From Escherichia phage LF82-19: 52,748 nucleotides of DNA. The notes under the pieces are model-generated. The model had not been told where the DNA came from. It worked only from the letters and a program-made list of their open reading frames with translations, and made no database searches. The DNA lies in sequence record PV660457. One strand, 5' to 3'. Position numbers and translations under genes: made by a program. This document shows, one piece after another, positions 3,507 to 50,758 of the stretch; the first letter of the stretch is position 1, and every line of letters starts with the position of its first letter.

Positions 3507-4248
3507 ACAGTGGCGCTATCCAGAAGCAAGCGAGCGGGAATTATCCCGCTCTCTGGCAACGTTCGCGGGTGAGCTTATCGTGTTTGCTCGCGATCAACTG
3601 GATAAGATGAAGTTTGACGCTAGCGCCGATGAGATAGATCAGGCAGAAAGCGAGCTTGAAGATTACGCCGCGTATCTGATCGCAGGTCTGATGGCCTTGC
3701 TTCCATCGCTGGCGCTGAAGATTTACCGCTTCAACTCGCAGCAGTTTATTGATGTTGCCAAATCTGCTGGCGGGAAAAAGAATCCGGTTGTGGTTCTGCT
3801 TATCGCTCTGGGATATAACGCTAACGAGCCGTGGTATCGTGAGAAAGAAGATAACTGGCTATCTCTCACAGAGGCAAGTTATCGTAAGCTGGCGAATGAT
3901 ATCATTGCTGACTGGTCTAACACCGTAAGGATGGAAAACGCCAAAGGCAAGAGCCGTGAGTATATCGACGATGTGATTGAGCAGCGTTACAAGGTGTATA
4001 CTGGCTGGACGGTAAACAGATCTCGTGGAATCGTTGCGACTTGGAATAGTTTACTGATGCGCGCGCGCCTGGAAGATTCAGGAGTGACGCATTATTTTTG
4101 GCATGGTAAACTTGACGAACGCGAGCGCCTTAAGCACTTGTTATGGGAGAACAAACGAATCGCCATAAACAGCGATCACGTATTCCCAGGTGAAGAATAC
4201 GGTTGCCGATGCTGGGCAACTCCTGACTTTTACAATATCGAGGAATGA
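3484..4248 (+). CDS. minor head / head morphogenesis protein
   Basis: 254 aa overlapping portal stop; position between portal and scaffold. Confidence 0.5.
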   Translation: MKVQGIAKQWRYPEASERELSRSLATFAGELIVFARDQLDKMKFDASADEIDQAESELEDYAAYLIAGLMALLPSLALKIYRFNSQQFIDVAKSAGGKKNPVVVLLIALGYNANEPWYREKEDNWLSLTEASYRKLANDIIADWSNTVRMENAKGKSREYIDDVIEQRYKVYTGWTVNRSRGIVATWNSLLMRARLEDSGVTHYFWHGKLDERERLKHLLWENKRIAINSDHVFPGEEYGCRCWATPDFYNIEE

Positions 4249-5997: not shown

Positions 5998-6028
5998 TTA
6001 TGTCTACCACAAAAAGATATTGACCGTT

Positions 6029-6043
6029 TAGCAAAAAGTGCTA
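6029..6043. promoter_or_regulatory. palindrome TAGCAAAAAGTGCTA within major-capsid promoter region
   Basis: lies in the spacer between TTGACC (6020-6025) and TATTAT (6042-6047); followed by hairpin GCGTGA ... TCACGC. Confidence 0.45.
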
Positions 6044-23012: not shown

Positions 23013-23498
23013 ATGCCGCACATCATCACAGGTGAGATCAAAAAAGCCCCGTACACCAAAGACGGAAGCAACAATAACGGGCGATGGAAAATGTACATTG
23101 TCGATCTGAGTGAGCGCATGAAAGTGCGCAACCCTGACACACAGGCCGATGAAGTTGTTTACACAAACTACAAGGCAACCTTCTTTGCAAAAGAAAACGT
23201 CATGCAGTGGTACGATGAAGCGTTCCAGGTTGGCAAGGTAATCAGCGTAACGTGTGACACGCTGCAAATCACCAGCCGAGATCACAACGGCAATACGTAT
23301 CTTACGGCTGAAATGATCCGGCCTCAACTGACCTTCAGCCAGCGAGAGGCTCAGCAGCAGGGATGGGGGCAACCACAGCAGCCGCAAGGCAATCAGCAAC
23401 AAAGCCAGCACAGACCACCACAGCAGCGACCACAGCAGCGACCACAGCAGCAACAGCCACAGCAGGGAAATCAGTTTGACGATGACATTCCATTCTGA
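23013..23498 (+). CDS. ssb: single-stranded DNA-binding protein
   Basis: C-terminal DDDIPF acidic tip, the E. coli SSB-type tip, preceded by Gln/Pro-rich linker; OB-fold-sized N-terminal domain. Confidence 0.7.
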   Translation: MPHIITGEIKKAPYTKDGSNNNGRWKMYIVDLSERMKVRNPDTQADEVVYTNYKATFFAKENVMQWYDEAFQVGKVISVTCDTLQITSRDHNGNTYLTAEMIRPQLTFSQREAQQQGWGQPQQPQGNQQQSQHRPPQQRPQQRPQQQQPQQGNQFDDDIPF

Positions 23499-23509: not shown

Positions 23510-23535
23510 AAAGGAGCCTTTCGGCTCCTTTTTTA
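23510..23535. terminator. bidirectional terminator between ssb and tail fiber
   Basis: AGGAGCC-tttc-GGCTCCT then TTTTTTATTT. Confidence 0.55.
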
Positions 23536-25752
23536 TTTCAGCAATAACGACTCAAGTTTAGCAAGGCGCTCTTCCATTTCCTCCATTCTGTTACCCATGT
23601 AAACCATAGCACAGGCCATATCAGTAAGCATGACGTTTGAATCAAGAGCTAGCGTATCGTCCTTAAATCCAGTCTCGATCTGCCTGGCAACGTACTCCTC
23701 ACCATTCTCGTTGACTCCGATAACATCTTCAAAGATCGGAGCGCCAGGGACTACTTTCACATACTGACTATCAACTTTATTCAAGTCCTGAGCAATCAGA
23801 CCGAATCTCTGTGTGTCAGATCCCTTATACTTGAACATGGTTGGGAGCCACTGCATTACGCGATCATAGCTCTCCTTTCCTTCGGTGTATTTGATATCCC
23901 ACTTAAGATCCCGGTCAGACGTTGGCGCTTTCTGGAATGTATACCCCCCATCCCATCCTCCACCCTGACCCCATGAGATAATATCTGATGATGGTGCATG
24001 GAATTCAAATCCGCGATGGTACGCACCATCACCAAGCATCTTAATTACTGCGCGAGGCCATCCGTTGTTCCCGCTAGAAATCATACCAAGAGAGGTATTC
24101 ATTCGATACCCGCCAGTTGATGTGGTTGCCCCTGAGATCAATGAAGCATATCCGGCATCATTACCCGTTACATCACCAGCAAAGAACGTACTCCCCATGT
24201 AATCATTTGGCTGCGCCCAACCTCCTTGAGTTAACTTACCAAGAAACCCCCTTGGAGAAGATATGTGACCGCCGTATGAGTTTATGAATTTAAACTCCTT
24301 CCAGTCACTTCCTTGGTTGTTCACTCCGATCTTGAAGTGATCAATATCAGTGCCACTACCGCGAACCCCCCCAATCTGCCAGTAACCAGAGTACCAGTTA
24401 CCTTGAACCAGGTTAACCCAACTATTAACAGAGCCATCACCAGCAGCGTTTTGAATCAGGATGTTTTTGTTTCCGCCACTCTGAGTTGAAACAACGATCG
24501 ATTTACCCTGCTTTGCCTCTACGTTTCCGTTTGTTGCAACCAGAGCGCCGCCGCTAATCGTTCCGACGGCTGTCAGCGATGCAACTCCGGTAATGTTCCC
24601 CGCCTCATCAAACTGATAGTAGTTCCCCTTTCCTCCAGCCGTGTTTGCCGTGTGAATCGTTGTCTTTACAACGCCGCCTTGTAGTTCATTGTAAAATCTT
24701 GAGTTTGATTGCAGCGTTGCGCCGTCAGCAGAAAGCCTTTTACTCTCAATCAGCCCCCCACTAGTTGCTGAGCCAAGTGTTGTAGCCTCCACGCCTCCAA
24801 ATCTCACCGCTTGACCCGAGCCGATACCAAGATTGTTTCTTGCTCCGTCAGCAGTTGTTGATCCAGTGCCACCAGATCCGATAGGGATCGGGATTACATT
24901 TCCGTTACTATCCTGCCACTGGAAAATCCCATCATCGCCAATCGTCAGCCTTTTTGTTCTATCTGGCGTGCTAATGTAGTTACGCGTTCCAATGTGGCGC
25001 AGCCAGTCAAGATCAAGGTTCGTCCTCGCGGCTTGTACGTCAGTAAGATCAGATAGGTTATTTGCCTTCTTTAGCTGTTCGTCAGGGTTAGCCGTTGCTG
25101 CGCGGTCTGCTTCAGCCTTGGCTCGTGCTGCATCGTCACGAGCGGCGGCGGCAGATTGCCCGGCGCTGGTTTCGCTGTTTGCTGCATTCGTCTCGCTTAC
25201 CCTGGCGGCATCCTTGCTGGCTCCGGCTTGGGTTGCGGCAACTTCGGCGGCAACGCGTTGCTGATAAGCTTGCTGGTTCTGGCTTCCGGCCTCGCTTGCA
25301 CTTTGTGCGGCGGCGTTCTTGCTTGCCTCAGCTTCGTTTGCGTTAACTTCAGTACGATCAGCATCAACGCGAACGGCAGACTGAAGATCTTTCAGCTCTT
25401 GCAGGTTAAAGTTCTTGAAGAAATCCATAGCCTCCTCGATCACAGTTTCCTTGCTTTGGTAGTAGCGCAGAGTTTCAGCCACATCTTGAGCAAGGCCATC
25501 AACAGTGATTGAGTCATGCAGCAGGATTACATAGTTCGTACCATCCGGCACAACTGCATCATCCGTTTGGATCGCTCGCATTTCCGTGTCACTCACGATC
25601 GCGGAAATAGTAACCAGCGTTAGTGGTTGAGTTAAAAACACCATCGTTGCCCCAACGCGAATCAGAGACAGCTTGTCTTGCCATTTCGTATCAACGCCAG
25701 TTACAACGCCGTTAGCGGCCAATCCCGCCGTTCCTCTACGATAAATCGCCAT
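23533..25752 (-). CDS. tail fiber with C-terminal peptidase S74 intramolecular chaperone domain
   Basis: C-terminus DRDLKWDIKY ... GLIAQDL ... LAKLESLL typical of the autocleaving chaperone domain of fibers/endosialidases; Gly/Ser/Thr-rich beta-like middle; start at ATG 25752. Confidence 0.75.
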   Translation of the reverse strand: MAIYRRGTAGLAANGVVTGVDTKWQDKLSLIRVGATMVFLTQPLTLVTISAIVSDTEMRAIQTDDAVVPDGTNYVILLHDSITVDGLAQDVAETLRYYQSKETVIEEAMDFFKNFNLQELKDLQSAVRVDADRTEVNANEAEASKNAAAQSASEAGSQNQQAYQQRVAAEVAATQAGASKDAARVSETNAANSETSAGQSAAAARDDAARAKAEADRAATANPDEQLKKANNLSDLTDVQAARTNLDLDWLRHIGTRNYISTPDRTKRLTIGDDGIFQWQDSNGNVIPIPIGSGGTGSTTADGARNNLGIGSGQAVRFGGVEATTLGSATSGGLIESKRLSADGATLQSNSRFYNELQGGVVKTTIHTANTAGGKGNYYQFDEAGNITGVASLTAVGTISGGALVATNGNVEAKQGKSIVVSTQSGGNKNILIQNAAGDGSVNSWVNLVQGNWYSGYWQIGGVRGSGTDIDHFKIGVNNQGSDWKEFKFINSYGGHISSPRGFLGKLTQGGWAQPNDYMGSTFFAGDVTGNDAGYASLISGATTSTGGYRMNTSLGMISSGNNGWPRAVIKMLGDGAYHRGFEFHAPSSDIISWGQGGGWDGGYTFQKAPTSDRDLKWDIKYTEGKESYDRVMQWLPTMFKYKGSDTQRFGLIAQDLNKVDSQYVKVVPGAPIFEDVIGVNENGEEYVARQIETGFKDDTLALDSNVMLTDMACAMVYMGNRMEEMEERLAKLESLLLK

Positions 25753-25775
25753 TGTCAACACCTCTTGTTAGTAAA

Positions 25776-25790
25776 TAGCACGAATTGCTA
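25776..25790. promoter_or_regulatory. palindrome TAGCACGAATTGCTA downstream of tail-fiber -10
   Basis: lies between the extended -10 and the RBS of the tail fiber gene, opposite in orientation to early-promoter copies. Confidence 0.45.
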
Positions 25791-33057: not shown

Positions 33058-33231
33058 ATGAAAGTTAAATGTATTCGCAATGACTCTAAATCGCTCCCGT
33101 TCCATGTGAACCAGTTTTACTCTATCGGGTTCGATCACGGCGGCGGGAACTTCGAAATTTATGACGGTTGCGGCTCCTGTATTATTGCCCCGCTAAATGG
33201 GCATTATCTGGAATTCGTTATCGTCAAATAA
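33058..33231 (+). CDS. small protein, member of MKVKC family
   Basis: 57 aa starting MKVKCI ... FYSIG; not in ORF track. Confidence 0.4.
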   Translation: MKVKCIRNDSKSLPFHVNQFYSIGFDHGGGNFEIYDGCGSCIIAPLNGHYLEFVIVK

Positions 33232-35024: not shown

Positions 35025-36611
35025 TTACCCCAGCAAGCGTGGATTAACGTAAATCTTATCACCGATCAGGCAAGTGTAATTCTTCTCGTCAAGCATCGGC
35101 AGCAAGTGATCTTTGATTCGTGTCATTGTTCCGGCCTGGCCTTCGAATGGTCGAACCTTGCGCGCGGCCTCGTAAAGCGCCCGAAGACCAACAACGCCCT
35201 TCCCCTGCTTTCCGCTCTTGATCAGCAAGTCAATAAGCTTGTTCATTTCTGCTGAATCGCCAGCGTGCCCGGCAGACGACGCGGAAGAAAGATAGGTCTT
35301 GCTCAGCTCGTTAAACATGATCACGGCCTCCTGCATTGTGTCAAGCTCAATCTCTCGACTCTTCGGCGCATTGCTTCCGTTTGGTGAGAACCAGTTACGG
35401 ATCACATGCAGAACCGACGCGATACGAATCGCCTGTTTATCGAACTTGCCCAGCGCACCGCGTAACATGGTGTGCGAGTATTTCCCGCCGTCTGCCAAGT
35501 GTGGCTCCATCGCCTGGCGTGCGTTGTTAAGGTACTTCATCGCGCTCTTGCTCACCGTGAGCTTAACGTCAACCTCACTCATGATGGCGTGTATCAGCTT
35601 GAAGTAATCAGCTTTCAGGCCGCCGTCAATAGGCTCGTAAGTTGACTCGCCATTGTCATTCACGAAAACACGCTCACCAAGGAATGACTTCTCACGAACC
35701 AGCAAGAAACGCTCAGAAACACCGATACCGCGCGCACCTGCATTCATGATCGCGTTGATTGTCTCGTCCTGCGCGATAACCGAAATACAACCCATAGCCA
35801 CGAATGACATGTTGTTATCAGCGTTCGCACGAGCGATAGACACGTTCCCTGCATCCCATGCTTTCAGCACAAGCTCGCTGTTTGTCTTCTTCGAACCGTC
35901 ACCATACGTCATGCCCAACAGGCTGTTAACGGATGTCGCTTCGTCCGAGATCACAGCGAAGTTGCCTTGACGGTTGTTAATGCGTGCCAAGCCTTCAGGC
36001 GTGGTATCTGAAACAGGGAAAACGATATCGCAAAGGCGCTCAAGCTTCTCTTCAAGATCCTCTTTCTCCTCAAACAGCGAGGCCATTTCAGATGGCGCTT
36101 TCTCCTGTTTCATTTCCTTCGCCAGCGCAGACAGTTTGGCGAGAATCTTTTTACGCTCACGCTTACGAGCCTCGTTGAGTCGCTCAGTCTCCGCGATCAT
36201 TGGCGCGATGGATAGCGAGTTGATTGCGGATTTCCCCGTTGATGGTGGCTGACTGGTTACAACGTAGAGCGCAGTTGGTTGTTGCGTTCCGTGATAGTCA
36301 ACCGTGAACCTACCCAGCATGGCGGCAGACACGCAACCTACAAAGTGCATATAGGCTGAAGACTCAGGGAATTGAACCGATCTCGCGGCGTTGCGTGAGA
36401 GCTTGCCGACCACATCACTATCGTTGCCCAGGGAAATAACAGGATATTTATCATTACCTGAATCAATCTCTACCGGAGCCTTCCAGAAGGATTGGGATTG
36501 ACGATATCCATTCGCATTTATGGCAACGCGGAGCGGCGGCAACCCTTCGGCCTTTGCAACCTCGATCACTTGTTCCGGCGAAAGTTTATCATCATTGAAA
36601 ATATCGAACAT
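35025..36611 (-). CDS. P-loop NTPase, putative replication helicase/initiator
   Basis: Walker A-like PPSTGKS; 528 aa; in replication gene neighbourhood. Confidence 0.45.
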   Translation of the reverse strand: MFDIFNDDKLSPEQVIEVAKAEGLPPLRVAINANGYRQSQSFWKAPVEIDSGNDKYPVISLGNDSDVVGKLSRNAARSVQFPESSAYMHFVGCVSAAMLGRFTVDYHGTQQPTALYVVTSQPPSTGKSAINSLSIAPMIAETERLNEARKRERKKILAKLSALAKEMKQEKAPSEMASLFEEKEDLEEKLERLCDIVFPVSDTTPEGLARINNRQGNFAVISDEATSVNSLLGMTYGDGSKKTNSELVLKAWDAGNVSIARANADNNMSFVAMGCISVIAQDETINAIMNAGARGIGVSERFLLVREKSFLGERVFVNDNGESTYEPIDGGLKADYFKLIHAIMSEVDVKLTVSKSAMKYLNNARQAMEPHLADGGKYSHTMLRGALGKFDKQAIRIASVLHVIRNWFSPNGSNAPKSREIELDTMQEAVIMFNELSKTYLSSASSAGHAGDSAEMNKLIDLLIKSGKQGKGVVGLRALYEAARKVRPFEGQAGTMTRIKDHLLPMLDEKNYTCLIGDKIYVNPRLLG

Positions 36612-36686: not shown

Positions 36687-37103
36687 TTATAAATATTTTG
36701 CTTCAAATGTTGTGCCGTCTGCGATCGAAAATCCAACCTCCTCGCGGTAAAGGTTCCACGGTGAGCCGTCCTCGTCAAAGATAAGCCCGGCAACCCCACC
36801 AAGCGCCCTGCCTGAATCCACCTGGTAGCGCTTGCCAACCTTAAAGGATTTCTTCATTGGGTTCTTGTGATCCAGCGTCATGCACTTCAGGGTTTTAGTT
36901 TTCATCTCAACGAATGTTGCAGCAACGACGCCATCCGATGAAACGAAAATATCACCGCTTACGCCAACCGAAAGCACGATCTTAGCCTTGCCCTTGCCGA
37001 TTGAAATGTTGCCTTCATCGTCAACTTTCGCCTTATACATGTGGTTAGCGTTGAAGGTTTTAGTTAATGACATGGTGCATTTGATCTTGATTGACTTTGA
37101 CAT
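36687..37103 (-). CDS. hypothetical protein (possible MKVKC-family relative)
   Basis: start MSKSIKIKCT with RBS GAGGAA; track ORF to 37166 runs through promoter. Confidence 0.4.
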   Translation of the reverse strand: MSKSIKIKCTMSLTKTFNANHMYKAKVDDEGNISIGKGKAKIVLSVGVSGDIFVSSDGVVAATFVEMKTKTLKCMTLDHKNPMKKSFKVGKRYQVDSGRALGGVAGLIFDEDGSPWNLYREEVGFSIADGTTFEAKYL

Positions 37104-37132
37104 TTTTAGTTCCTCGTTGTTGGTGTGAATGA

Positions 37133-37175
37133 ATAATAACAAAACCCGCCGAAGCGGGTTTAACAAAAAGTGCTA
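37133..37175 (-). promoter_or_regulatory. palindrome plus terminator-like hairpin plus -10 TATTAT
   Basis: on minus: TAGCACTTTTTGTTA-AACCCGCTTCGGCGGGTTTTG-TTATTAT; same 40-nt element as 48965-49007. Confidence 0.5.
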
Positions 37176-37865
37176 TTTGTAACGGTTGTACTGGAAGACG
37201 GCGCGAGCGAATCCGCGCGGAGTTAGGGAGCGGAGTTGCTTAGTCTTCGCAGACTTTCCGCCGAGGAACTTCCAGCCCCAAAAGAAATGCAAGCCTTCCT
37301 CTTTTGGTAATGGTGCCTTCTCTGGCTCGCGGAAACCGTTGCCATGCCAGATGCAAGTTTTTTTCGTGTAGCCGTCTCGCAGTGGCATTTTGGGGTGCCA
37401 GGAGCCTTCACGCGCATCGACGTATTGCCCGAAGTCACGAGGATGGAAATAGAATTTAGGCTTGCCCAGGTTTTCCGGCTTTGACATTGCCCCTACCGGG
37501 TTTTCAATCATCCACGGGATCTGGTAGCGTTCGCCAATCTCAATGACAACCTTTGCACACTCAAGCGCATATTTCATTTCGGCGTCGTCTCTCTCGTGCT
37601 GCGCGCCAGATTGGGCAAACAGAGTGCAATCCGGGAAGCCAAAAACGATATCAGGCTTGGGCAACCCCAGGATCTCAGCCTTTGTGATGAAATCCTTATC
37701 AATCCACGTATTCACATATCGGATATTTGGGTGATTCATCTTCACGGCGTACTCGCCATGATTGCCGGAGTCAGCGTTGAAGCATATCACCTGACAACCA
37801 ACCTCAGCCCAAGGCAATCCCATAATGCCGGAGCCGTCAAACAGCGACCATACAACACGCTTCAT
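37173..37865 (-). CDS. C5-cytosine methyltransferase-like protein (short)
   Basis: motif I LFDGSG, motif IV FPDCTLF (PC), motif VI ENP (ENV-like); only 230 aa, no obvious target-recognition domain. Confidence 0.55.
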   Translation of the reverse strand: MKRVVWSLFDGSGIMGLPWAEVGCQVICFNADSGNHGEYAVKMNHPNIRYVNTWIDKDFITKAEILGLPKPDIVFGFPDCTLFAQSGAQHERDDAEMKYALECAKVVIEIGERYQIPWMIENPVGAMSKPENLGKPKFYFHPRDFGQYVDAREGSWHPKMPLRDGYTKKTCIWHGNGFREPEKAPLPKEEGLHFFWGWKFLGGKSAKTKQLRSLTPRGFARAVFQYNRYK

Positions 37866-38083
37866 TCTGCCACCTCTTCAAATTTAGCCACGCCCAGGAT
37901 TACCCATCCTTTATGGTGCATAGTAACCGCTTGCCACTCGAATGAGCCGTTGCGGCGCTTCTCATCGCCAGTGATCACAGCATCACCGCCAACCTTCACG
38001 GCATCGTAGATTTTACCTTTCGTGAAGTGTGGCTTTTGCTTCTTATCGGTTGGCGAAACAGCGCCAGTACATTTCAGTTTCAT
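37862..38083 (-). CDS. small protein, MKLKC family member
   Basis: MKLKCTG ... FTKGKIY N-terminal motif. Confidence 0.45.
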   Translation of the reverse strand: MKLKCTGAVSPTDKKQKPHFTKGKIYDAVKVGGDAVITGDEKRRNGSFEWQAVTMHHKGWVILGVAKFEEVAE

Positions 38084-38092
38084 TGCAGATCC

Positions 38093-38332
38093 TTAAAATG
38101 GAATTTCATCTTTGCAAGCTTGACATACTTTCTCAGGCGTGCATGAGCAGTTATAAGCGCAAACAGAAACCGGATTATTGCCGATAACCTTGCTTTCTGA
38201 TTGGTGATCCATTCCACCAAGAGCATCATCAAGCTCTATGCACCCATAGGCAACCATCATTGCCCACTCGTCGTTAAGCCCGGCATCCTTAGCCGCGCGG
38301 TGGCGGCTCCAGAAGTTATTGACGTTCTTCAT
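38093..38332 (-). CDS. hypothetical Cys-containing small protein
   Basis: start MKNVNN with RBS GGGAG; N-terminal part of track ORF 38093-38623 is low-complexity overlap and rejected. Confidence 0.35.
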   Translation of the reverse strand: MKNVNNFWSRHRAAKDAGLNDEWAMMVAYGCIELDDALGGMDHQSESKVIGNNPVSVCAYNCSCTPEKVCQACKDEIPF

Positions 38333-38558
38333 TCTCGCGCTCCCGATCCTGATAGCCGATTTCAACGAGCGCGGAGCCAGCAGCCTCGACGAATTCCATG
38401 TTGCAGCACATAAAGAAAAGTTCCTTGTATTGCTGAGGAACATCAAGCGCATCGATAATCTCTCTTGCGCGATCTTCATCGATATCGTTGCGATATAGCC
38501 CGATCTGGCGCGAATGCATACGGAACGTCGCGCCAGCTTCAATCTTGTTGATAGCCAT
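38316..38558 (-). CDS. hypothetical acidic protein
   Basis: 80 aa. Confidence 0.4.
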   Translation of the reverse strand: MAINKIEAGATFRMHSRQIGLYRNDIDEDRAREIIDALDVPQQYKELFFMCCNMEFVEAAGSALVEIGYQDRERENEERQ

Positions 38559-38561
38559 TTA

Positions 38562-38786
38562 TTAGCTCCAGGAGTTGATAAACATTGCGTTACCTTCAAG
38601 AACCTGAATAACTTCAAACTCACTGTATTTCGTCAGGCCGGAACCTGGGGTTTTGCCAACCACAAAGGAGCCATCACGGCGAGCGGTAATGCAAATCTGA
38701 GTCAGGCCGGATGCGCGATCCAATTTCACGCGAACGGAGCCAGTTTTATCCAGGTGTGCCATGATATTTGCGGTTTTAACTTTCAT
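38562..38786 (-). CDS. hypothetical protein
   Basis: start MKVKT with RBS AAGGAA; track extension to 38831 overlaps promoter. Confidence 0.4.
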   Translation of the reverse strand: MKVKTANIMAHLDKTGSVRVKLDRASGLTQICITARRDGSFVVGKTPGSGLTKYSEFEVIQVLEGNAMFINSWS

Positions 38787-38816
38787 CTTCATTTCCTTGT
38801 TTGTTGGTGTAACTGC

Positions 38817-38859
38817 ATTATTGCAGATCACGCCGATTTAGTTTTAACAAAAAGTGCTA
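38817..38859 (-). promoter_or_regulatory. palindrome TAGCA-N5-TGTTA plus hairpin with AATAAT
   Basis: TAG stop of upstream gene is the first half-site; 22-nt gap. Confidence 0.5.
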
Positions 38860-39204
38860 TTTGATGCCGTCAAAGGTTGTGTATTTCAGGTTCACACTGA
38901 CCTTGCCATCATCGAAATGGAAAGCGGGAGCCTCAAAGCGGATGATGTTATTCATCGTTCCGGCCTCTACGTAGCGTCGTGCGCCATTTCTCATGGGGAT
39001 AACGCTGACTCTCTTTGCCGCATCGAATGGATTTGAAACGCCAAAGTATCGACATACAGCGCCGCGCAACGCCTCATCTTCATGCTTATGCATATCACGG
39101 ATGAGGCGATTTTTAGCGTCCATCATCACATCATAGCTTGCACAGCTAGAGCCGATGTTGCTATATTCGCGCATTCCGCCAACCTTGAATTGATTGTTGT
39201 TCAT
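38857..39204 (-). CDS. hypothetical protein
   Basis: 115 aa. Confidence 0.45.
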   Translation of the reverse strand: MNNNQFKVGGMREYSNIGSSCASYDVMMDAKNRLIRDMHKHEDEALRGAVCRYFGVSNPFDAAKRVSVIPMRNGARRYVEAGTMNNIIRFEAPAFHFDDGKVSVNLKYTTFDGIK

Positions 39205-39449
39205 GGTAACTTTACCTCGTTGTATTCACAGAATTCGATTACATATTCACAGCTATCGGTTGACTCAGTGCCGCGCAGAACATCACAGCCGCCATCACTA
39301 CCCAAGAAGGCCGGGCATGAAGCGCACAGCGCGCCGCCGCAATTCGATTCGACGATTGACATTCCGTTACACCTTCCGCCGCCGAATCGGTGCGGAAAGT
39401 CATAGGCGCGGCAGTCGCACGTAACCTGGTGTCGCTTACGCTTTTGCAT
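39201..39449 (-). CDS. cysteine-rich small protein (putative metal-binding)
   Basis: 12 Cys in 82 aa, including CDC and CxxC-like spacings. Confidence 0.45.
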   Translation of the reverse strand: MQKRKRHQVTCDCRAYDFPHRFGGGRCNGMSIVESNCGGALCASCPAFLGSDGGCDVLRGTESTDSCEYVIEFCEYNEVKLP

Positions 39450-39660
39450 CTGCCAGCCACTTAGCGTATTTTGCGCGCTGATTCATTGAGCAGGTGATCC
39501 CCTCTTCCTTCATGTTGCTCGCGCGGTAGATCTCAACCTGTGATTCCGTGTTTAACTTGCCATCACGAACGTAAACGGAGCCACGGAAGGTGTGGAAAAC
39601 TACATCTTTCATGGTTGCAGCCAGCGCCAGGAATTCAGACTTTTTCATCATATGTGCCAT
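39436..39660 (-). CDS. hypothetical protein
   Basis: 74 aa. Confidence 0.4.
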   Translation of the reverse strand: MAHMMKKSEFLALAATMKDVVFHTFRGSVYVRDGKLNTESQVEIYRASNMKEEGITCSMNQRAKYAKWLADAKA

Positions 39661-39691
39661 TTGCTTATCTCCGTTTCGTTTTAGTGGTTAC

Positions 39692-39734
39692 ATTATGCCG
39701 GGTTTCCGCCCGGCACGTTTAGCAATTAGTGCTA
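39692..39734 (-). promoter_or_regulatory. palindrome TAGCA-N5-TGCTA plus hairpin with CATAAT
   Basis: on minus: TAGCACTAATTGCTA, 22 nt (GTGCCGGG ... CCCGGC hairpin), CATAAT. Confidence 0.5.
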
Positions 39735-39941
39735 TCAGATTGATTCGATTACCGCGTGGAAATCTTTGCGGGTTTTGCAGTCTGCCAGGCGTGCATAACA
39801 TGCTTTAGCGTAGTCAGTATCGGCCTGAGTTTCGAAGATGCCACACTCTTTGGCGATAGCTTTTAATGTACGCTTTCCGCTTTCGATATCAGCCTTGATG
39901 CCGTTGATGGTGTTGATGTCGATGATGTTAAGAGTTGTCAT
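39735..39941 (-). CDS. hypothetical protein
   Basis: 68 aa. Confidence 0.4.
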   Translation of the reverse strand: MTTLNIIDINTINGIKADIESGKRTLKAIAKECGIFETQADTDYAKACYARLADCKTRKDFHAVIESI

Positions 39942-39978
39942 TTTGCTATCCTTTTGTGTGCTTCGTTTCGATGGAGTA

Positions 39979-40021
39979 ATAATAGCAAAAGCCAGATCGG
40001 GAGTTTTAGCAAAAAGTGCTA
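39979..40021 (-). promoter_or_regulatory. palindrome TAGCA-N5-TGCTA plus -10 TATTAT
   Basis: 22-nt gap; palindrome itself flanked by inverted repeat CCGGATCGGGA / TCCCGATCTGG. Confidence 0.5.
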
Positions 40022-40083
40022 TTTTCCCGATCCGGCGCGCGGAACATCTGCCCCATGGTTTGGGGTGTTAACCAGTCAGAGCG

Positions 40084-40512
40084 TCATGCGTAATAAAGCC
40101 CTGATGTTAGTTTCTCAACGTCAACCTTCGCCTTGTACGGCTTATCACACCCAAGGCACCAGGCTATATAATCAGCGCCATGATCACAAGACGAAATCCA
40201 GACGCGCCATTGCTTTGACCCGGCGTGCCAGCGATACAGAACCTTGTAATCCTCACTATGGAAGTAAACGCCATCATCATCATCGCGGATGATATGCCCA
40301 CGCTCAAACAGCTTGAAGCGCTTCACGGTTTCGATGATGTAGCGCGCCTGAGGGTTAGCGCTCCCGGTTTTGTACACGCGCCCGGCTGACATTTTGCCTT
40401 CACTATCACTGATGCGAACCATCGTCATTCCACCATCGACGTGCTGACGGGTAACAGTGGCACCACGGCTTTTGGCGAACTCCAGCGCCTTGATCAGATG
40501 TTTGTTTTTCAC
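40084..40512 (-). CDS. hypothetical protein
   Basis: 142 aa. Confidence 0.45.
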   Translation of the reverse strand: MKNKHLIKALEFAKSRGATVTRQHVDGGMTMVRISDSEGKMSAGRVYKTGSANPQARYIIETVKRFKLFERGHIIRDDDDGVYFHSEDYKVLYRWHAGSKQWRVWISSCDHGADYIAWCLGCDKPYKAKVDVEKLTSGLYYA

Positions 40513-40724
40513 GCTTTATTCCTCGTTAATTTGAAAGTCAATTCAACCTCGCCCACAACCTCCGCCATCCCATGATTTACCATGTAACGAAACTCTTCAT
40601 AGGTAAATGCGGTTTGCGCTGGCAGGCCATCCATGATGCGCATACAAGGCAACTCACTGTAGCGCGTCATTGGGATCGCGTACTCGCGCCCGGTTGTCTT
40701 AATGCGGATAAGTTTCATTTTCAT
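40509..40724 (-). CDS. hypothetical protein
   Basis: 71 aa, overlapping neighbours by 4 nt. Confidence 0.4.
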   Translation of the reverse strand: MKMKLIRIKTTGREYAIPMTRYSELPCMRIMDGLPAQTAFTYEEFRYMVNHGMAEVVGEVELTFKLTRNKA

Positions 40725-40906
40725 TGCGCCTCCATCTCCTCAACTGAACCACAGTACCCTTTCTCATTGTTGATCTCATCCTCACGAGCAACCGCATCAC
40801 TCTCTTTAAGCCATACGCTATCAACCTCTGAGTCTCCGCCACTAAAGAACTCGTGACGCATCACAACGTATACGATCATAACCACTCCATTGCTTTGATG
40901 ATGCAC
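40721..40906 (-). CDS. hypothetical acidic protein
   Basis: 61 aa. Confidence 0.35.
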   Translation of the reverse strand: MHHQSNGVVMIVYVVMRHEFFSGGDSEVDSVWLKESDAVAREDEINNEKGYCGSVEEMEAQ

Positions 40907-41124
40907 TCTGCCTGTGAGCCGATAAACGAGTTGTCTTTGGTATCAGCTCTCCACTGACGCGATCCTTTTGCCACCTGGGTGCACGTAATCATAACGCCAC
41001 CACGATAACCAACCTTGAACGCGTTTGATGTCTTGCCATTACTGCGCTTACGGAAATGGTCAGTAACGATTACTCCGTTGTCAGTTGCAGCGTCGATTGC
41101 TTGCTGAATGGTTAACTTGCTCAT
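40876..41124 (-). CDS. hypothetical protein
   Basis: 82 aa. Confidence 0.4.
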   Translation of the reverse strand: MSKLTIQQAIDAATDNGVIVTDHFRKRSNGKTSNAFKVGYRGGVMITCTQVAKGSRQWRADTKDNSFIGSQAECIIKAMEWL

Positions 41125-41127
41125 AAA

Positions 41128-41367
41128 TTACCCCTTGATAGTCAGGCCGAAAGCCTCAACCAGAATGTCACTTGCAGCGTGCATTTCGCAACGAGCAACC
41201 TCACGGTCATCAAAATTCTCTACAGCGTACATCACAACACCACGAGCCTGATCAGCTTCTACAAACTGGTTGCAACGGTCATTCAGTTCTTTCGCTAACT
41301 CAGCGTCAAAATCAGCCGTTACGCCTTCGATAAACTCCGCCTCGGTGATGATGTTCATGTAGCGCAT
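41128..41367 (-). CDS. hypothetical protein (first gene of minus-strand early operon)
   Basis: 79 aa, RBS GAGGAA. Confidence 0.45.
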   Translation of the reverse strand: MRYMNIITEAEFIEGVTADFDAELAKELNDRCNQFVEADQARGVVMYAVENFDDREVARCEMHAASDILVEAFGLTIKG

Positions 41368-41398
41368 TGCTGTTTCCTCAGTTCGTTTCGTTGAGATA

Positions 41399-41441
41399 AC
41401 TATAGCCGAAACATCCTGAGTGGTTTTAGCAAAAAGTGCTA
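41399..41441 (-). promoter_or_regulatory. palindrome TAGCA-N5-TGCTA plus -10 TATAGT
   Basis: 22-nt gap; leftmost promoter of the minus-strand early operon. Confidence 0.5.
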
Positions 41442-41562
41442 TTGATTCGATTTATCCAATTATTCCATTATTCCAACTATTCTGGAATATTCCTGAATAA
41501 CCGAATATCTGGAATAGTCAAAATGACTATGGCTCTCCGTTCGTTTTAGCGAACAAACGTTC

Positions 41563-41582
41563 GATGTGATGTGATGTGATGT
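41563..41582. repeat. (GATGT)x4 tandem repeat
   Basis: GATGTGATGTGATGTGATGT in divergent control region. Confidence 0.6.
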
Positions 41583-42015
41583 GAATGAGGGTGAGGAGGC
41601 GATCAGATCTGATCCCGAAACTTTTTCCCTCACCGCACGATTTGCTAATGAATTGTCGTGCCTGTAGTTGTATGTTGTGTTTTACGTTTTCCGTGGAAAT
41701 CGGTACGCGCTACTACGCGGAATAACAATGTTATGCTTTATATATAGATATATAAGTATATATAAAATAAAGGTTTTTTATTATATATATTATCTAATTT
41801 CATAACACTTTATAACGTGTTGTGTTTGTTCCGCCGGACGCGGAGTGATTGATATGTTTCGCGGCCTATTTATGCCTATATTGTGAAATATGGGTAGGGG
41901 GATATATACCCCTCCGAAATCCGCAACAAACGCTTAATACGCACTACAACCCAGCAGGAATGCACCATGTAGAGGAGATTTTGTTGATAATGGCAATAAT
42001 CGACACAAATTAATC

Positions 42016-42044
42016 TTGACTACAATTAAGCTTTTCCGCATTAT
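42016..42044 (+). promoter_or_regulatory. strong sigma70-like early promoter
   Basis: TTGACT - 17 nt - CATTAT, about 30 nt upstream of first plus-strand early gene. Confidence 0.55.
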
Positions 42045-42076
42045 GGCGGCTCAACCAATCAGATGAGGTATCACCC

Positions 42077-42783: not shown

Positions 42784-42798
42784 ATGGAATAATTGGAA

Positions 42799-42841
42799 TA
42801 GCACGAACTGCTAAAACACCAGATCGGGGCTATGCCATAAT
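42799..42841 (+). promoter_or_regulatory. palindrome TAGCA-N5-TGCTA plus hairpin with CATAAT
   Basis: 22-nt gap; hairpin GGGGCTA ... TAGCCCC. Confidence 0.5.
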
Positions 42842-45174: not shown

Positions 45175-45217
45175 TAGCACGAATTGCTAAAACGGCATGG
45201 CTCCTGAGTGGTATCAT
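45175..45217 (+). promoter_or_regulatory. palindrome TAGCA-N5-TGCTA plus hairpin with TATCAT
   Basis: hairpin ACGGCATG ... CATGCCGT; 22-nt gap. Confidence 0.5.
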
Positions 45218-45249
45218 GCCGTTACACCAAACAAACAGGAGTCACCCAA

Positions 45250-45615
45250 ATGAAAGTTAAATGCATTAGTTCAGACGTTTTGCTTGATGGTTACTACACC
45301 CCAGGTAGAGTCTACCGATTAAGGCGAGAAAGGGGCAAAAGCTATAGAACCGTTAAATCAAACAGAGGCGTTGATCTTGGTGTTATCCACGACCCATTAA
45401 AAAGAGGTCGGTTTTTCGTTGCTGGATTTGAACGTTGTGTGTTTGATTCGGCTCCGCACCGATTCGTGAAGCGCAACCAAAGCGCCGCGCTGGGGCAGAT
45501 TGAGATCGACTATACGCGATGCAAGCGCAGCATTCGCAATCAGGCTCGCAACATCGCAAAAGAGCACTTCTCGTGCGGCAAGCTTGAGAAGATTGCGCGA
45601 GGCTATAAGCGATAG
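45250..45615 (+). CDS. small basic protein, MKVKC family member
   Basis: MKVKCI ... YYTPGRVY; Arg/Lys-rich. Confidence 0.5.
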   Translation: MKVKCISSDVLLDGYYTPGRVYRLRRERGKSYRTVKSNRGVDLGVIHDPLKRGRFFVAGFERCVFDSAPHRFVKRNQSAALGQIEIDYTRCKRSIRNQARNIAKEHFSCGKLEKIARGYKR

Positions 45616-49814: not shown

Positions 49815-50267
49815 ATGAAATTAGTTTGCACATCATCACGCGTCAAAAGCTTCACCGTTGGAAAGAAATATGAAAGCCGCACAGTCGAGCATTACGGAAT
49901 TGTTACGCACGAGGTGGACGGAGACACCGCTTGCGGCTGGGTGATTAACGATGGCCTGAGCATTTGCGGAGCTGATCACTCAAACCCAATGGCAACTTTC
50001 CGCAAGGATAAGAGCATGATGAAGATGCTTGTTCGCGCATTCGTATTGGTTGCAAAGGCTCGCGGTTGGGGTGATAGCAAGAGCGGGGCTTACAAATCCT
50101 GGAGCGGCACACCTTACAAAAACTCCAGAGATTGGGCGCGAGCTATTGCCTTCAGCTACGATGTTGGGAGTGTTGCGCGCGAGATAATTGATGAAGATCC
50201 TAACGTGAAACTCATCGACCAGGAAGCGGTAAACCTGTTTGCCGAAAACGAGATCGACAACTGGTAA
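49815..50267 (+). CDS. MKLVC family protein
   Basis: MKLVCTSSRVKSFTVGKKY N-terminal motif; 150 aa. Confidence 0.5.
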   Translation: MKLVCTSSRVKSFTVGKKYESRTVEHYGIVTHEVDGDTACGWVINDGLSICGADHSNPMATFRKDKSMMKMLVRAFVLVAKARGWGDSKSGAYKSWSGTPYKNSRDWARAIAFSYDVGSVAREIIDEDPNVKLIDQEAVNLFAENEIDNW

Positions 50268-50329: not shown

Positions 50330-50758
50330 ATGAAATTACGTTGCACATTCCTTGAGCCAGCTTTCGCAAAAGCTCTGGCTGAGTTCTACACCATCGGCAA
50401 AACTTACGCCGCATCCATCAAGCCGGGATCAAAGGTTGGCGCTGTGCTGGTGGAGTCAAACGAAGGCAATGAAGGCGATCAGCTTGCAGCAGTTCCGAGC
50501 CGCTCAGGGTTCGAGGTTCAAATTAAGAACCAAATTCCGATCGCAAAGTTCGAGGTTGTTGGCAAGCGTGCGGTGAAGCTTGTTAAGACTGAGAAGCGCG
50601 TAACGCTGAAACTTGATGGCGTGGGGAAATCAGATAAGCGCCGATTCCGCCGTGTTTGCCGCCAGTATCGAAAGTTGAAATTCATCAACCCTGGATTCTA
50701 TTATGATCTGGAATCCGATCGCCACATGGCTAAACTTGCGCGACATCACCGCCGATAG
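50330..50758 (+). CDS. MKLRC family protein
   Basis: MKLRCT ... FYTIGKTY; basic C-terminus; preceded by hairpin AAGGCCG-tttataatag-CGGCCTT. Confidence 0.5.
   Translation: MKLRCTFLEPAFAKALAEFYTIGKTYAASIKPGSKVGAVLVESNEGNEGDQLAAVPSRSGFEVQIKNQIPIAKFEVVGKRAVKLVKTEKRVTLKLDGVGKSDKRRFRRVCRQYRKLKFINPGFYYDLESDRHMAKLARHHRR

Follow-up and report, generated by a model that had tools for sequence, protein, structure and literature searches.

A mosaic small-gene island beside the methyltransferase gene of the T1-like Escherichia phage LF82-19

Introduction

The 2024 re-annotation of phage TLS described 18 intergenic repeats of 21 nucleotides (nt), aaATAGCACnnnTTGnTAAAA, that precede start codons by about 76 nt; T1, Rtp and Rogue1 have similar repeats, and their role was left open between a stoperator, an enhancer site and an UP-like element (PMC11447400). 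For T1-like phages, host-synthesis shut-off, host-DNA degradation and the role of these intergenic repeats are all still open (PMC11447400). Here, we describe a block of 13 small genes, g1 to g13, on the minus strand of Escherichia phage LF82-19 (sequence record PV660457; the whole stretch of 52,748 nt is called the window), which lies at positions 37862-41367 next to a methyltransferase-like gene and is called the island. Its counterparts in TLS, including gp75 and gp76, are listed as 'hypothetical' in the 2024 re-annotation, and the T1 homologues of gp75 and gp76 are CPTT1_074 and CPTT1_075 (PMC11447400).

One island product, g2, ends in residues that resemble the C-terminal tip of SSB, a protein that binds single-stranded DNA. 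More than 14 partners, among them DnaG, Pol III chi, PriA and ExoI, are bound by E. coli SSB by way of its hub motif, the tip DDDIPF; the pockets that receive it have a basic rim and accommodate the terminal Phe with its carboxylate (PMC5872125). SSB naturally ends in the variant DEIPF in Rhodobacter and Halomonas, and RecT-type recombinases of phages need a matching tip (PMC13490951).

Results

Position and gene content of the island

LF82-19 is a T1-like siphovirus of the Drexlerviridae, near Vilniusvirus. In a megablast search of 50,697 phage records, the region 37000-42000 matched Escherichia phages LF82-10, -11, -12 and -40 at 100% identity over the full query, and the records of these four phages give E. 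coli LF82 as the isolation host. The next relatives were the Klebsiella phages HazelMika (Drexlerviridae, Vilniusvirus) and KLB19, with ~75% identity over a quarter of the query. On the plus strand, the genes run in order from terminase to tail, followed by recombination genes and SSB, primase, a Dam-like methyltransferase and the lysis genes. After the lysis genes comes a minus-strand block of a helicase at 35025-36611, a phrog_2684 gene, a C5-like methyltransferase and the island; past the island lie a 700-bp (base pairs) AT-rich non-coding hub at 41368-42076 and then a long plus-strand series of small genes. The order of small genes, (methyltransferase), phrog_2684 gene and helicase is common to the HazelMika, W011D, Sushi, TLS and SH2 loci. 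Homology and synteny with T1-like phages, on the strand opposite to the lysis genes, therefore identify the island as a T1-like small-gene arm.

The genes are listed below from the hub toward the methyltransferase. Coordinates include the stop codon, and within the island a window coordinate equals the PV660453.1 coordinate minus 147; lengths are in amino acids (aa), pI is the isoelectric point and ORF stands for open reading frame.

g13, 41128-41367, minus strand: 79 aa, acidic (pI 4.2); first gene after the hub; ORF without Pfam or PHROG match
g12, 40876-41124, minus strand: 82 aa, basic; ORF without family match
g11, 40721-40879, minus strand: 52 aa, very acidic (pI 4.1); orphan with a 4-nt overlap on each side; annotated in PV660453
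g10, 40509-40724, minus strand: 71 aa, basic; member of the TLS gp84 family without match in PHROG or Pfam
g9, 40084-40512, minus strand: 142 aa, GTG start, basic; C-terminal part with a C-x-H-x7-C-x2-C motif
g8, 39735-39941, minus strand: 68 aa; monocistronic unit; ORF
g7, 39436-39660, minus strand: 74 aa, basic; phrog_14613 (E 5e-21)
g6, 39201-39449, minus strand: 82 aa, Cys-rich; phrog_5016
g5, 38857-39204, minus strand: 115 aa, basic; near-orphan with a weak phrog_11577 match (E 1e-7)
g4, 38562-38786, minus strand: 74 aa, basic; phrog_4344 (E 7e-31); family-wide T1-like gene
g3, 38316-38558, minus strand: 80 aa, acidic (pI 4.6); ORF
g2, 38093-38332, minus strand: 79 aa; phrog_9323; equivalent of TLS gp75 and T1 CPTT1_074
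g1, 37862-38083, minus strand: 73 aa, basic; phrog_4448 (E 3e-21); stop overlaps the methyltransferase start by 4 nt
C5-cytosine-methyltransferase-like gene, 37173-37865, minus strand: 230 aa; last gene of unit 4; flanks the island

Twelve of the 13 genes are annotated in GenBank record PV660453 of the near-identical LF82-10. The remaining one, g6, falls in a gap between the g5 and g7 coding sequences of PV660453.1, and its homologues are annotated as W011D gp42 and Sushi gp51.

A sequence-only reading of the window had described a dense minus-strand island between the C5-methyltransferase-like gene and the hub, and this description holds: the 13 co-directional genes add up to 3252 of the 3506 bp (~91%, as the sum of gene lengths). 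The products are 52-142 aa long, not 60-176 aa as first given; the 176-aa ORF (38093-38623) is an overlong reading of the g2 frame, the upstream part of which runs through g3 and the end of g4 in a frame different from theirs. The Met start that makes g2 79 aa long is shared by all homologues, one of them a database protein with 100% identity. An acidic 80-aa protein and several basic ones had been noted, and these are present as g3 and as seven proteins with a pI above 9. The Cys-rich 82-aa protein at 39201-39449 is a real gene, found in 530 phage records, with 9 Cys where 12 had been counted.

Four operon-like units behind repeat modules

The 19-mer TAGCACTTTTTGCTAAAAC has 20 matches in the genome when up to 4 mismatches are allowed.

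Repeat sites, minus strand: 6025-6043, 36664, 37157, 38841, 39716, 40003, 41423
Repeat sites, plus strand: 25776, 27315, 29877, 32881, 42799, 43597, 44266, 45175, 45613, 46700, 48965, 49742, 50756

Eighteen of the 20 copies have a TATAAT-like hexamer 21-23 bp past TTGnTA, usually at exactly 22 bp and often preceded by TGn as in an extended -10 element; these 18 copies all lie in the non-structural half of the genome and are co-oriented with the genes. The two copies without a -10 hexamer are at 6025-6043 (antisense, in the head-gene region) and at 25776. No sense-oriented module is found in the structural block, and the same modules precede the helicase and other replication-region genes. By eye, many copies have a short GC-rich inverted repeat that ends at the -10 hexamer, as in GCCGGGCGGAAACCCGGC-ATAAT, or encloses it, as in GGGGATTCGTCCTGACTGGTATAATCCCC. 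The family-specific intergenic repeat ATAGCACnnnTTGnTAAAA, co-directional with the genes, is thus present with 20 copies in the window, and four of them are in the island.

Module 1, 41399-41441, minus strand: exact 19-mer TAGCACTTTTTGCTAAAAC, with TATAGT 22 bp after TTGCTA; heads g13-g12-g11-g10-g9
Module 2, 39979-40021, minus strand: exact 19-mer, then TATTAT; heads g8
Module 3, 39692-39734, minus strand: TAGCACTAATTGCTAAACG, 4 mismatches, then CATAAT; heads g7-g6-g5
Module 4, 38817-38859, minus strand: 1 mismatch, then AATAAT; heads g4-g3-g2-g1 and the methyltransferase

Module 1 corresponds to the TLS 21-nt repeat, and two further modules precede the phrog_2684 gene and the helicase. Nine junctions have an overlap or gap of -17 to +9 nt, and there are only four intergenic spacers, of 70-142 bp. 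The island is therefore organised as four operon-like units, each behind one repeat copy, with the remaining genes translationally coupled. Most of the genes had been placed behind a palindrome/-10 module of their own. The module itself is real, with 17 matches at up to 3 mismatches against 0.01 expected, but just four copies are in the island, upstream of g13, g8, g7 and g4, and the other nine genes overlap or abut their neighbours.

A scan with the consensus sigma-70 promoter gave 5 sites, fewer than the 8.4 found in shuffled sequence, and a literature search for early-gene transcriptomics of Drexlerviridae gave nothing usable. In the mechanism that we propose, the units of the island would be transcribed early or in the middle period by the host RNA polymerase from the repeat modules.

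A few conserved genes amid exchangeable cargo

From the sequence alone, none of the products had been recognisable, and the searches agree, giving no functional name. Pfam returned no family at E ≤0.1 for any of the 13 proteins and NCBIfam no match for g1-g10; the PDB sequences held no relative of the 13 proteins, searched as a concatenated query, and profiles of g6, g2 and g4 had no match in the PDB either. PHROGs gave seven matches, strong for g1, g2, g4, g6 and g7 and weak or partial for g5 and g9, all of them labelled 'unknown function'. The two proteins that were modelled, g2 and g6, had no structural neighbour. These results show that none of the 13 products belongs to a described protein family.

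Related T1-like phages carry homologues of g6, g4, g2 and g1; the first three are found in hundreds of genomes and g1 in far fewer. g4, with TLS gp76 and T1 CPTT1_075 as counterparts, adjoins g2 in hundreds of Drexlerviridae records, and most of the 769 records matched by a concatenated tblastn query are due to the g2-g4 pair. g1 is 79% identical in HazelMika and NBD2 and is also found in some Klebsiella phages and Rogunavirinae. Six genes (g12, g10, g8, g7, g13 and g3) are sporadic. By tblastn in the phage collection, the homologues of g13 (54% identity) are limited to Klebsiella phage KLB26 and Escherichia phage BananaBelafonte, while g12 is matched at 42-52% identity in HazelMika, NBD2, FSL SP-126 and Stevie, g10 at 53% by TLS gp84 with further homologues in DanielBernoulli, F20 and others, and g3, outside the LF82 phages, by Klebsiella phage KLB19 as its single homologue (83%). 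Over residues 16-68, g8 shares 58-69% identity with proteins from Klebsiella and Pantoea phages that belong to other families; the Pantoea phages Vid5, LIET2 and Nafs113 carry homologues of this C-terminal two-thirds at 58-69% identity. Homologues of g7, about 50% identical, occur in ~175-kb Klebsiella myoviruses (Miro-like), in Webervirus and in Pantoea phage LIET2. The distribution of g7 and g8 indicates that small genes have probably been exchanged across phage families.

The other three genes, g11, g9 and g5, are orphans. No homologue of g11 was found beyond the LF82 phages by tblastn in the phage collection, and g11 is the least secure gene of the 13. For g9, no homologue outside the LF82 phages was found in the same collection, and its match to phrog_13365 is weak and covers residues 1-67 only (E 9e-7). 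g5 gave only sub-threshold hits to NucS-shadow/SCO5389 and no clear homologue outside the LF82 phages. A relationship between g9 and g12, or between them and the DUF5417/Frd.1-like protein that Klebsiella phage Sushi has at the same position, was considered and rejected, as BLASTP found no significant similarity.

In HazelMika, only g1, g2, g4, g6 and g12 are recognisable. Taken together, these results show that the island is a mosaic, with few conserved genes amid exchangeable cargo, and that it is the variable small-gene arm of Drexlerviridae between a divergent AT-rich control region and the methyltransferase-helicase module. The sporadic genes would be exchangeable cargo of a kind that often serves host takeover or counter-defence, and none of them can be assigned. 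Two of the conserved products, g2 and g6, are small putative metal-binding proteins.

g2 ends in an SSB-like tip

The phage's own SSB, outside the island, was used as a comparator for g2.

Phage SSB, 23013-23498, plus strand: 161 aa, ends ...QFDDDIPF (translation)

g2, present in 633 phage records, ends in CKDEIPF, and the C-terminal I-P-F is invariant across homologues of 42-100% identity. The window has 399 ORFs of 40 aa or more, and an IPF ending is found among them only in SSB, in g2 and in one spurious antisense ORF. The conserved N-terminal segment of g2, NNFWSRHRAAxDAGLNxEWALKVAYGCIELDDALGxMD, is followed by a variable linker, and the invariant columns are F7 and, toward the C-terminus, C62, C64, C70, C73, I77, P78 and F79, in which the four Cys form a knuckle C62-x-C64-x5-C70-x2-C73. 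A profile search of 1.84 billion representative proteins yielded 34 members of the g2 family. Of 39 short representatives, 35 end in [ILVMFE]-P-[FW], optionally with an additional W, after a net-acidic tail, and three of the four exceptions are fragments; likewise, all 25 distinct homologues from IMG/VR end in hydrophobic-Pro-aromatic. The constant feature of the family is the tip and not the Cys knuckle, as members without Cys end in ...KFDDGIPF, ...DYDDFIPW or ...GEDYIPW. The g2-like protein of Tunavirus SH2 ends in ...GDDTGDNDDDDYIPW, and the Tunavirus form is ...GDNDDDDYIPW.

The AlphaFold model of g2, which is moderately confident and was made from an input alignment of 11 sequences, has helices at residues 7-16, 21-28 and 34-44 (pLDDT, the per-residue model confidence, 74-80) and disorder at 46-64 (pLDDT <50). 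The length and composition of the linker vary across the family. g2 thus has the parts of an SSB C-terminal tail, with hydrophobic-Pro-Phe at the C-terminus after acidic residues and a disordered linker before the tip. It is not itself an SSB of the OB-fold (oligonucleotide/oligosaccharide-binding) type, since the model is a three-helix bundle and no SSB family was hit in Pfam or NCBIfam.

The N-domain of g2 (AGLNxEWAxKVAxGxxTLxxALGDMDMDxES) also occurs, without the IPF tip, inside longer proteins of Ackermannviridae and metagenomic phages, some of which share a terminal ...GGQAAWE/DxQNEKNAWLDSR. In Cba120, the domain is part of orf234 (1261-1818 of the locus examined), which is three genes away from gp43, the DNA polymerase gene.

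Tunavirus SH2 has, in order, a g4-like gene, a g2-like gene, the phrog_2684 gene and the helicase, with no methyltransferase between them. Since g4 and g2 accompany the helicase even where no methyltransferase adjoins, as in SH2, they are regarded as members of the replication module.

Because the tip of g2 copies the C-terminal tip of SSB, we propose docking in the pockets that bind SSB. g2 would be a small adaptor or decoy, composed of a three-helix domain, a flexible linker and an acidic-I-P-F tip, that would dock in the pockets of host proteins (ExoI, PriA, RecQ, Pol III chi, DnaG) or of phage replication and recombination proteins, and it would either compete with SSB or bring the partner of its N-domain to those proteins. 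That g2 docks into the SSB-tail pockets of host or phage DNA-metabolism proteins is a tentative proposal, drawn from sequence and model, to which we give somewhat less than an even chance.

g6 is a Cys-rich protein often found near methyltransferases

g6 matches phrog_5016 end to end (E 3e-35), and a profile search found 319 database proteins, all of 71-109 aa and stand-alone. Eleven residues are invariant in 121 aligned homologues (C11, C13, Y16, H20, R21, G25, C27, C42, C45, C55 and C67), and the hallmark of the family is C-x-C-x-A-Y-x-F-P-H-R-F-G-G-G-x-C. The 7 invariant Cys and 1 His fit two tetrahedral metal sites, predicted to hold zinc, or possibly an Fe-S cluster. The predicted fold, a confident model, and the profile had no similarity to described zinc-finger, zinc-ribbon, treble-clef or WhiB-like domains. 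A WhiB-like Fe-S protein, suggested by the spacing C-x14-C-x2-C-x(6-9)-C, was rejected since neither fold nor profile matched.

A methyltransferase-like gene lies within 3 kb of g6 in 60 of 80 IMG/VR loci, almost always downstream and on the same strand; in LF82-19, g6 is 1.3 kb and five genes upstream of the methyltransferase. In prophages of Erwinia/Pantoea and relatives, a methyltransferase lies directly downstream of g6, of the N6/N4 type (PF01555) once and of the Dam type (PF05869) four times; in three of these loci, a PF00145 C5 enzyme of 618-657 aa comes next. Across the Erwinia/Pantoea prophages, the methyltransferase family is swapped and g6 is kept. In the five Erwinia/Pantoea contig loci (L015-L019), the g6 homologue is at ~4001-4225 and one methyltransferase is fused to a PAPS-reductase domain; L015 also has excisionase-like and integrase-like ORFs, judged by eye, beyond the methyltransferases. 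No partner gene of g6 is shared across the Yuavirus, Serratia phage, Webervirus and W011D neighbourhoods.

The frequent adjacency of g6 to DNA methyltransferases is compatible with a role related to modification. g6 would be a structural protein with two metal sites that acts with phage DNA methyltransferases or on their expression. A functional tie to the methyltransferases, as a regulator or cofactor like Mu Com, is suggested by analogy and seems to us rather improbable.

Neighbouring genes and other features of the window

The methyltransferase-like gene that flanks the island (37173-37865) matches phrog_757 (E 4e-77). Its match to PF00145 scores 18.3 bits, under the cut-off of 22, and covers N-terminal motifs only (FDGSG, GFPDC, ENP); since the protein is short, at 230 aa, and matches PF00145 only in its N-terminal part, the usual target-recognition part is missing. 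In other T1-like phages, the same methyltransferase gene lies 2-4 kb upstream of g4 and not downstream.

The N-terminal motif MK[LV][KRV]C[TI]...F/Y-x-x-GK-x-Y is common to six proteins of the window; the 138-aa phrog_2684 protein has two copies of it.

33058-33231, plus strand: shares the motif
45208-45615, plus strand: shares the motif
49815-50267, plus strand: shares the motif
50330-50758, plus strand: shares the motif
37862-38083, minus strand: g1
36687-37103, minus strand: shares the motif

The shared motif suggests a small paralogous domain scattered over both small-gene arms; pairwise BLAST among these proteins is marginal (E 0.07-0.6).

The hub has 42% GC, a run of (ATCAC)n in the region 41563-41580 and a box, GGAATAATTGGA, which is repeated directly upstream of the first minus-side module (near 41455) and of the plus-side module at 42799 (42787-42798).

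Compared with the LF82-10 record, the window is shorter by 147 bp; coordinates match through the SSB gene and are offset by 147 beyond the tail-fibre gene (23533-25761, minus strand), which encodes 742 aa here and 788 aa as annotated in PV660453.1. Most of the difference is therefore placed in the tail fibre, because coordinates agree before that gene and shift after it and the two proteins differ in length.

Discussion

We explain the island as the small-gene arm of a T1-like phage, arranged in four units and mosaic in content, in which g2 and g6 have the roles proposed above, and we give this overall explanation a probability of about 0.6. The conserved genes would point to replication (g2, g4) and perhaps to methylation (g6), and not to strain-specific counter-defence.

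Several observations weigh against this explanation or parts of it. The coding status of g11, g9 and g5 is judged from ORF packing, because these genes have no homologues. The promoter function of the modules is putative, since the 22 bp between TTGnTA and the -10 hexamer are too long for a standard sigma-70 -35 element, and early expression of the island is inferred from its position and from modules shared with replication genes. As for g2, its tail in LF82-19 is weakly acidic and the IPF stands 3 residues past a probable zinc ligand, many homologues end in Trp or FPF, and four IMG/VR homologues have an extra residue after Phe (IPFW, VPFL), so that the free carboxylate of Phe, to which SSB pockets bind, would be lost. 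Co-variation between the tips of g2 and SSB was also considered, and SH2 gave no support, as its g2-like protein ends in DDYIPW and its SSB in DDDIPF. For g6, 30 viral loci anchored on g4 comprised 18 with a C5-like methyltransferase and g6, 11 with a methyltransferase without g6 and 1 with g6 without a methyltransferase; the 11 loci lead us to reject a strict obligate pairing. Among the annotated or scanned neighbours of g6 in the inspected Yuavirus and Serratia-phage loci, no methyltransferase was found, and the IMG/VR g6 loci come from two or three lineages only, so that synteny alone could explain the association.

The sequence-only reading had taken the island for early, individually promoted small genes beside a modification enzyme, a usual place for host-takeover and anti-restriction functions. 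The general placement and the mosaic turnover were borne out, and the individual promotion gave way to four operon-like units. An island that is mainly an arsenal of this kind, acting alongside the adjacent methyltransferase, would fit the location at the start of the non-structural arm beside a DNA-modification enzyme, the high gene turnover among close relatives, the sharing of g7 and g8 with unrelated phage families, as is typical of counter-defence cargo, the three small acidic products g3, g11 and g13 and the recurrence of g6 beside methyltransferases. However, no product could be linked to anti-restriction: described anti-restriction and anti-defence families (Ocr, ArdA, ArdB/KlcA) gave no Pfam match for the 13 proteins and no NCBIfam match for g1-g10, no solved structure was matched by sequence, and the two modelled proteins are without structural neighbour. 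Moreover, g2, g4 and g6 are far commoner than the usual strain-specific counter-defence genes, g2 and g4 track the helicase module and not the methyltransferase, and the net charge of the acidic proteins is just -7 to -10. An arsenal as the main content of the island is thus quite unlikely in our judgement.

A different doubt concerns the tip of g2, which could be a docking peptide for a site other than an SSB-tail pocket (on g4, on the helicase or at sites of the FtsZ C-terminal peptide), the likeness to SSB being coincidental. The family variants IPFW, VPFL, FPF and IPW deviate from the SSB consensus, several members have no acidic residues directly before the tip (CxxC-IPF), and g4 is a constant neighbour of g2. 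FtsZ carries D-I-P-A-F-L, but an extra residue separates Pro from Phe in this peptide, which also is not C-terminal. The DEIPF of g2 is identical to natural SSB tips and shares 4 of 5 residues with the DDIPF of phage and host, and the Tunavirus form has the whole SSB design, an acidic run and then I-P-aromatic at the extreme end; we regard a coincidental likeness as unlikely. It is very unlikely, in turn, that part of the island is non-coding, with g11, g9 and g5 as chance ORFs or decaying remnants and only the conserved genes functional. These three genes have no homologue beyond the four near-identical LF82 phages, g11 has only 52 aa and the PHROG matches of g5 and g9 are weak and partial. 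Yet they stand in phase within the operons, with 4-nt ATGA/GTGA overlaps and no untranslated gaps, their GC content at third codon positions (0.51-0.58) is like that of their neighbours, GenBank annotates them, and an open frame of 429 bp, as in g9, is unlikely to arise by chance at a GC content of 50%.

The island as such is an ordinary feature of T1-like phages and by itself changes nothing. g2 with its SSB-like tip is a concrete and cheaply testable candidate for contact with a host DNA-metabolism hub. A search of the literature, of incomplete coverage, found no report of a phage decoy or mimic of the SSB tail, which is not proof of novelty. The g6 family, with several hundred members, an unmatched predicted fold and a recurrent methyltransferase neighbour, is a reasonable target for structure determination and methylation assays. 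The strongest form of the proposal is that the g2 family, in more than 600 phage genomes, consists of previously unrecognised SSB-tail mimics that engage the host SSB hub and that g6 is the first representative of a new metal-binding fold linked to the DNA methyltransferases of phages; we consider this combination doubtful. If it were true, the g2 mimics would either disable the DNA repair and nuclease functions of the host or direct them to phage DNA, and g2 would be the first molecular handle on the takeover of host DNA metabolism by T1-like phages.

Comparison with known systems

With the anti-restriction proteins Ocr, ArdA, ArdB/KlcA and Ral, the island proteins share small size, an early position (inferred here) and, for g3, g11 and g13, a net negative charge. 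They differ in that no profile matches and in that the charge density is far lower than that of DNA mimics.

Mu Com is a small zinc-finger activator of the DNA-modification gene mom. Like Com and the controller proteins of restriction-modification systems, g6 is small, probably binds zinc, has a basic N-terminus and in several lineages lies directly upstream of modification genes in the same direction. Unlike Com, which has four ligands, g6 has eight conserved ones, and there is no similarity in sequence or fold.

The likeness of g2 to the SSB C-terminal tail consists of KDEIPF in g2 itself and, in its relatives, of an acidic run followed by I/L/V-P-F/W, after a disordered linker. The differences are the absence of an OB fold, the Cys4 knuckle just before the tip in many members and the endings in Trp, FPF or an extra residue in some. 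A replisome protein other than SSB with such a tail is T7 gp4, whose acidic, aromatic-ended tail is like that of the phage SSB gp2.5.

The gp75-gp86 region of TLS, together with the T1 genes, resembles the whole island. Nine of the 13 island genes have no counterpart in TLS, which has an HNH endonuclease and other small genes instead, and since the TLS genes are all hypothetical the comparison transfers no function. The position, the strand logic and the repeat are nevertheless the same in both; g6 corresponds to gp78, g4 to gp76, g2 to gp75 and g10 to gp84, and in TLS, too, a methyltransferase (dcm, gp74) and the helicase follow.

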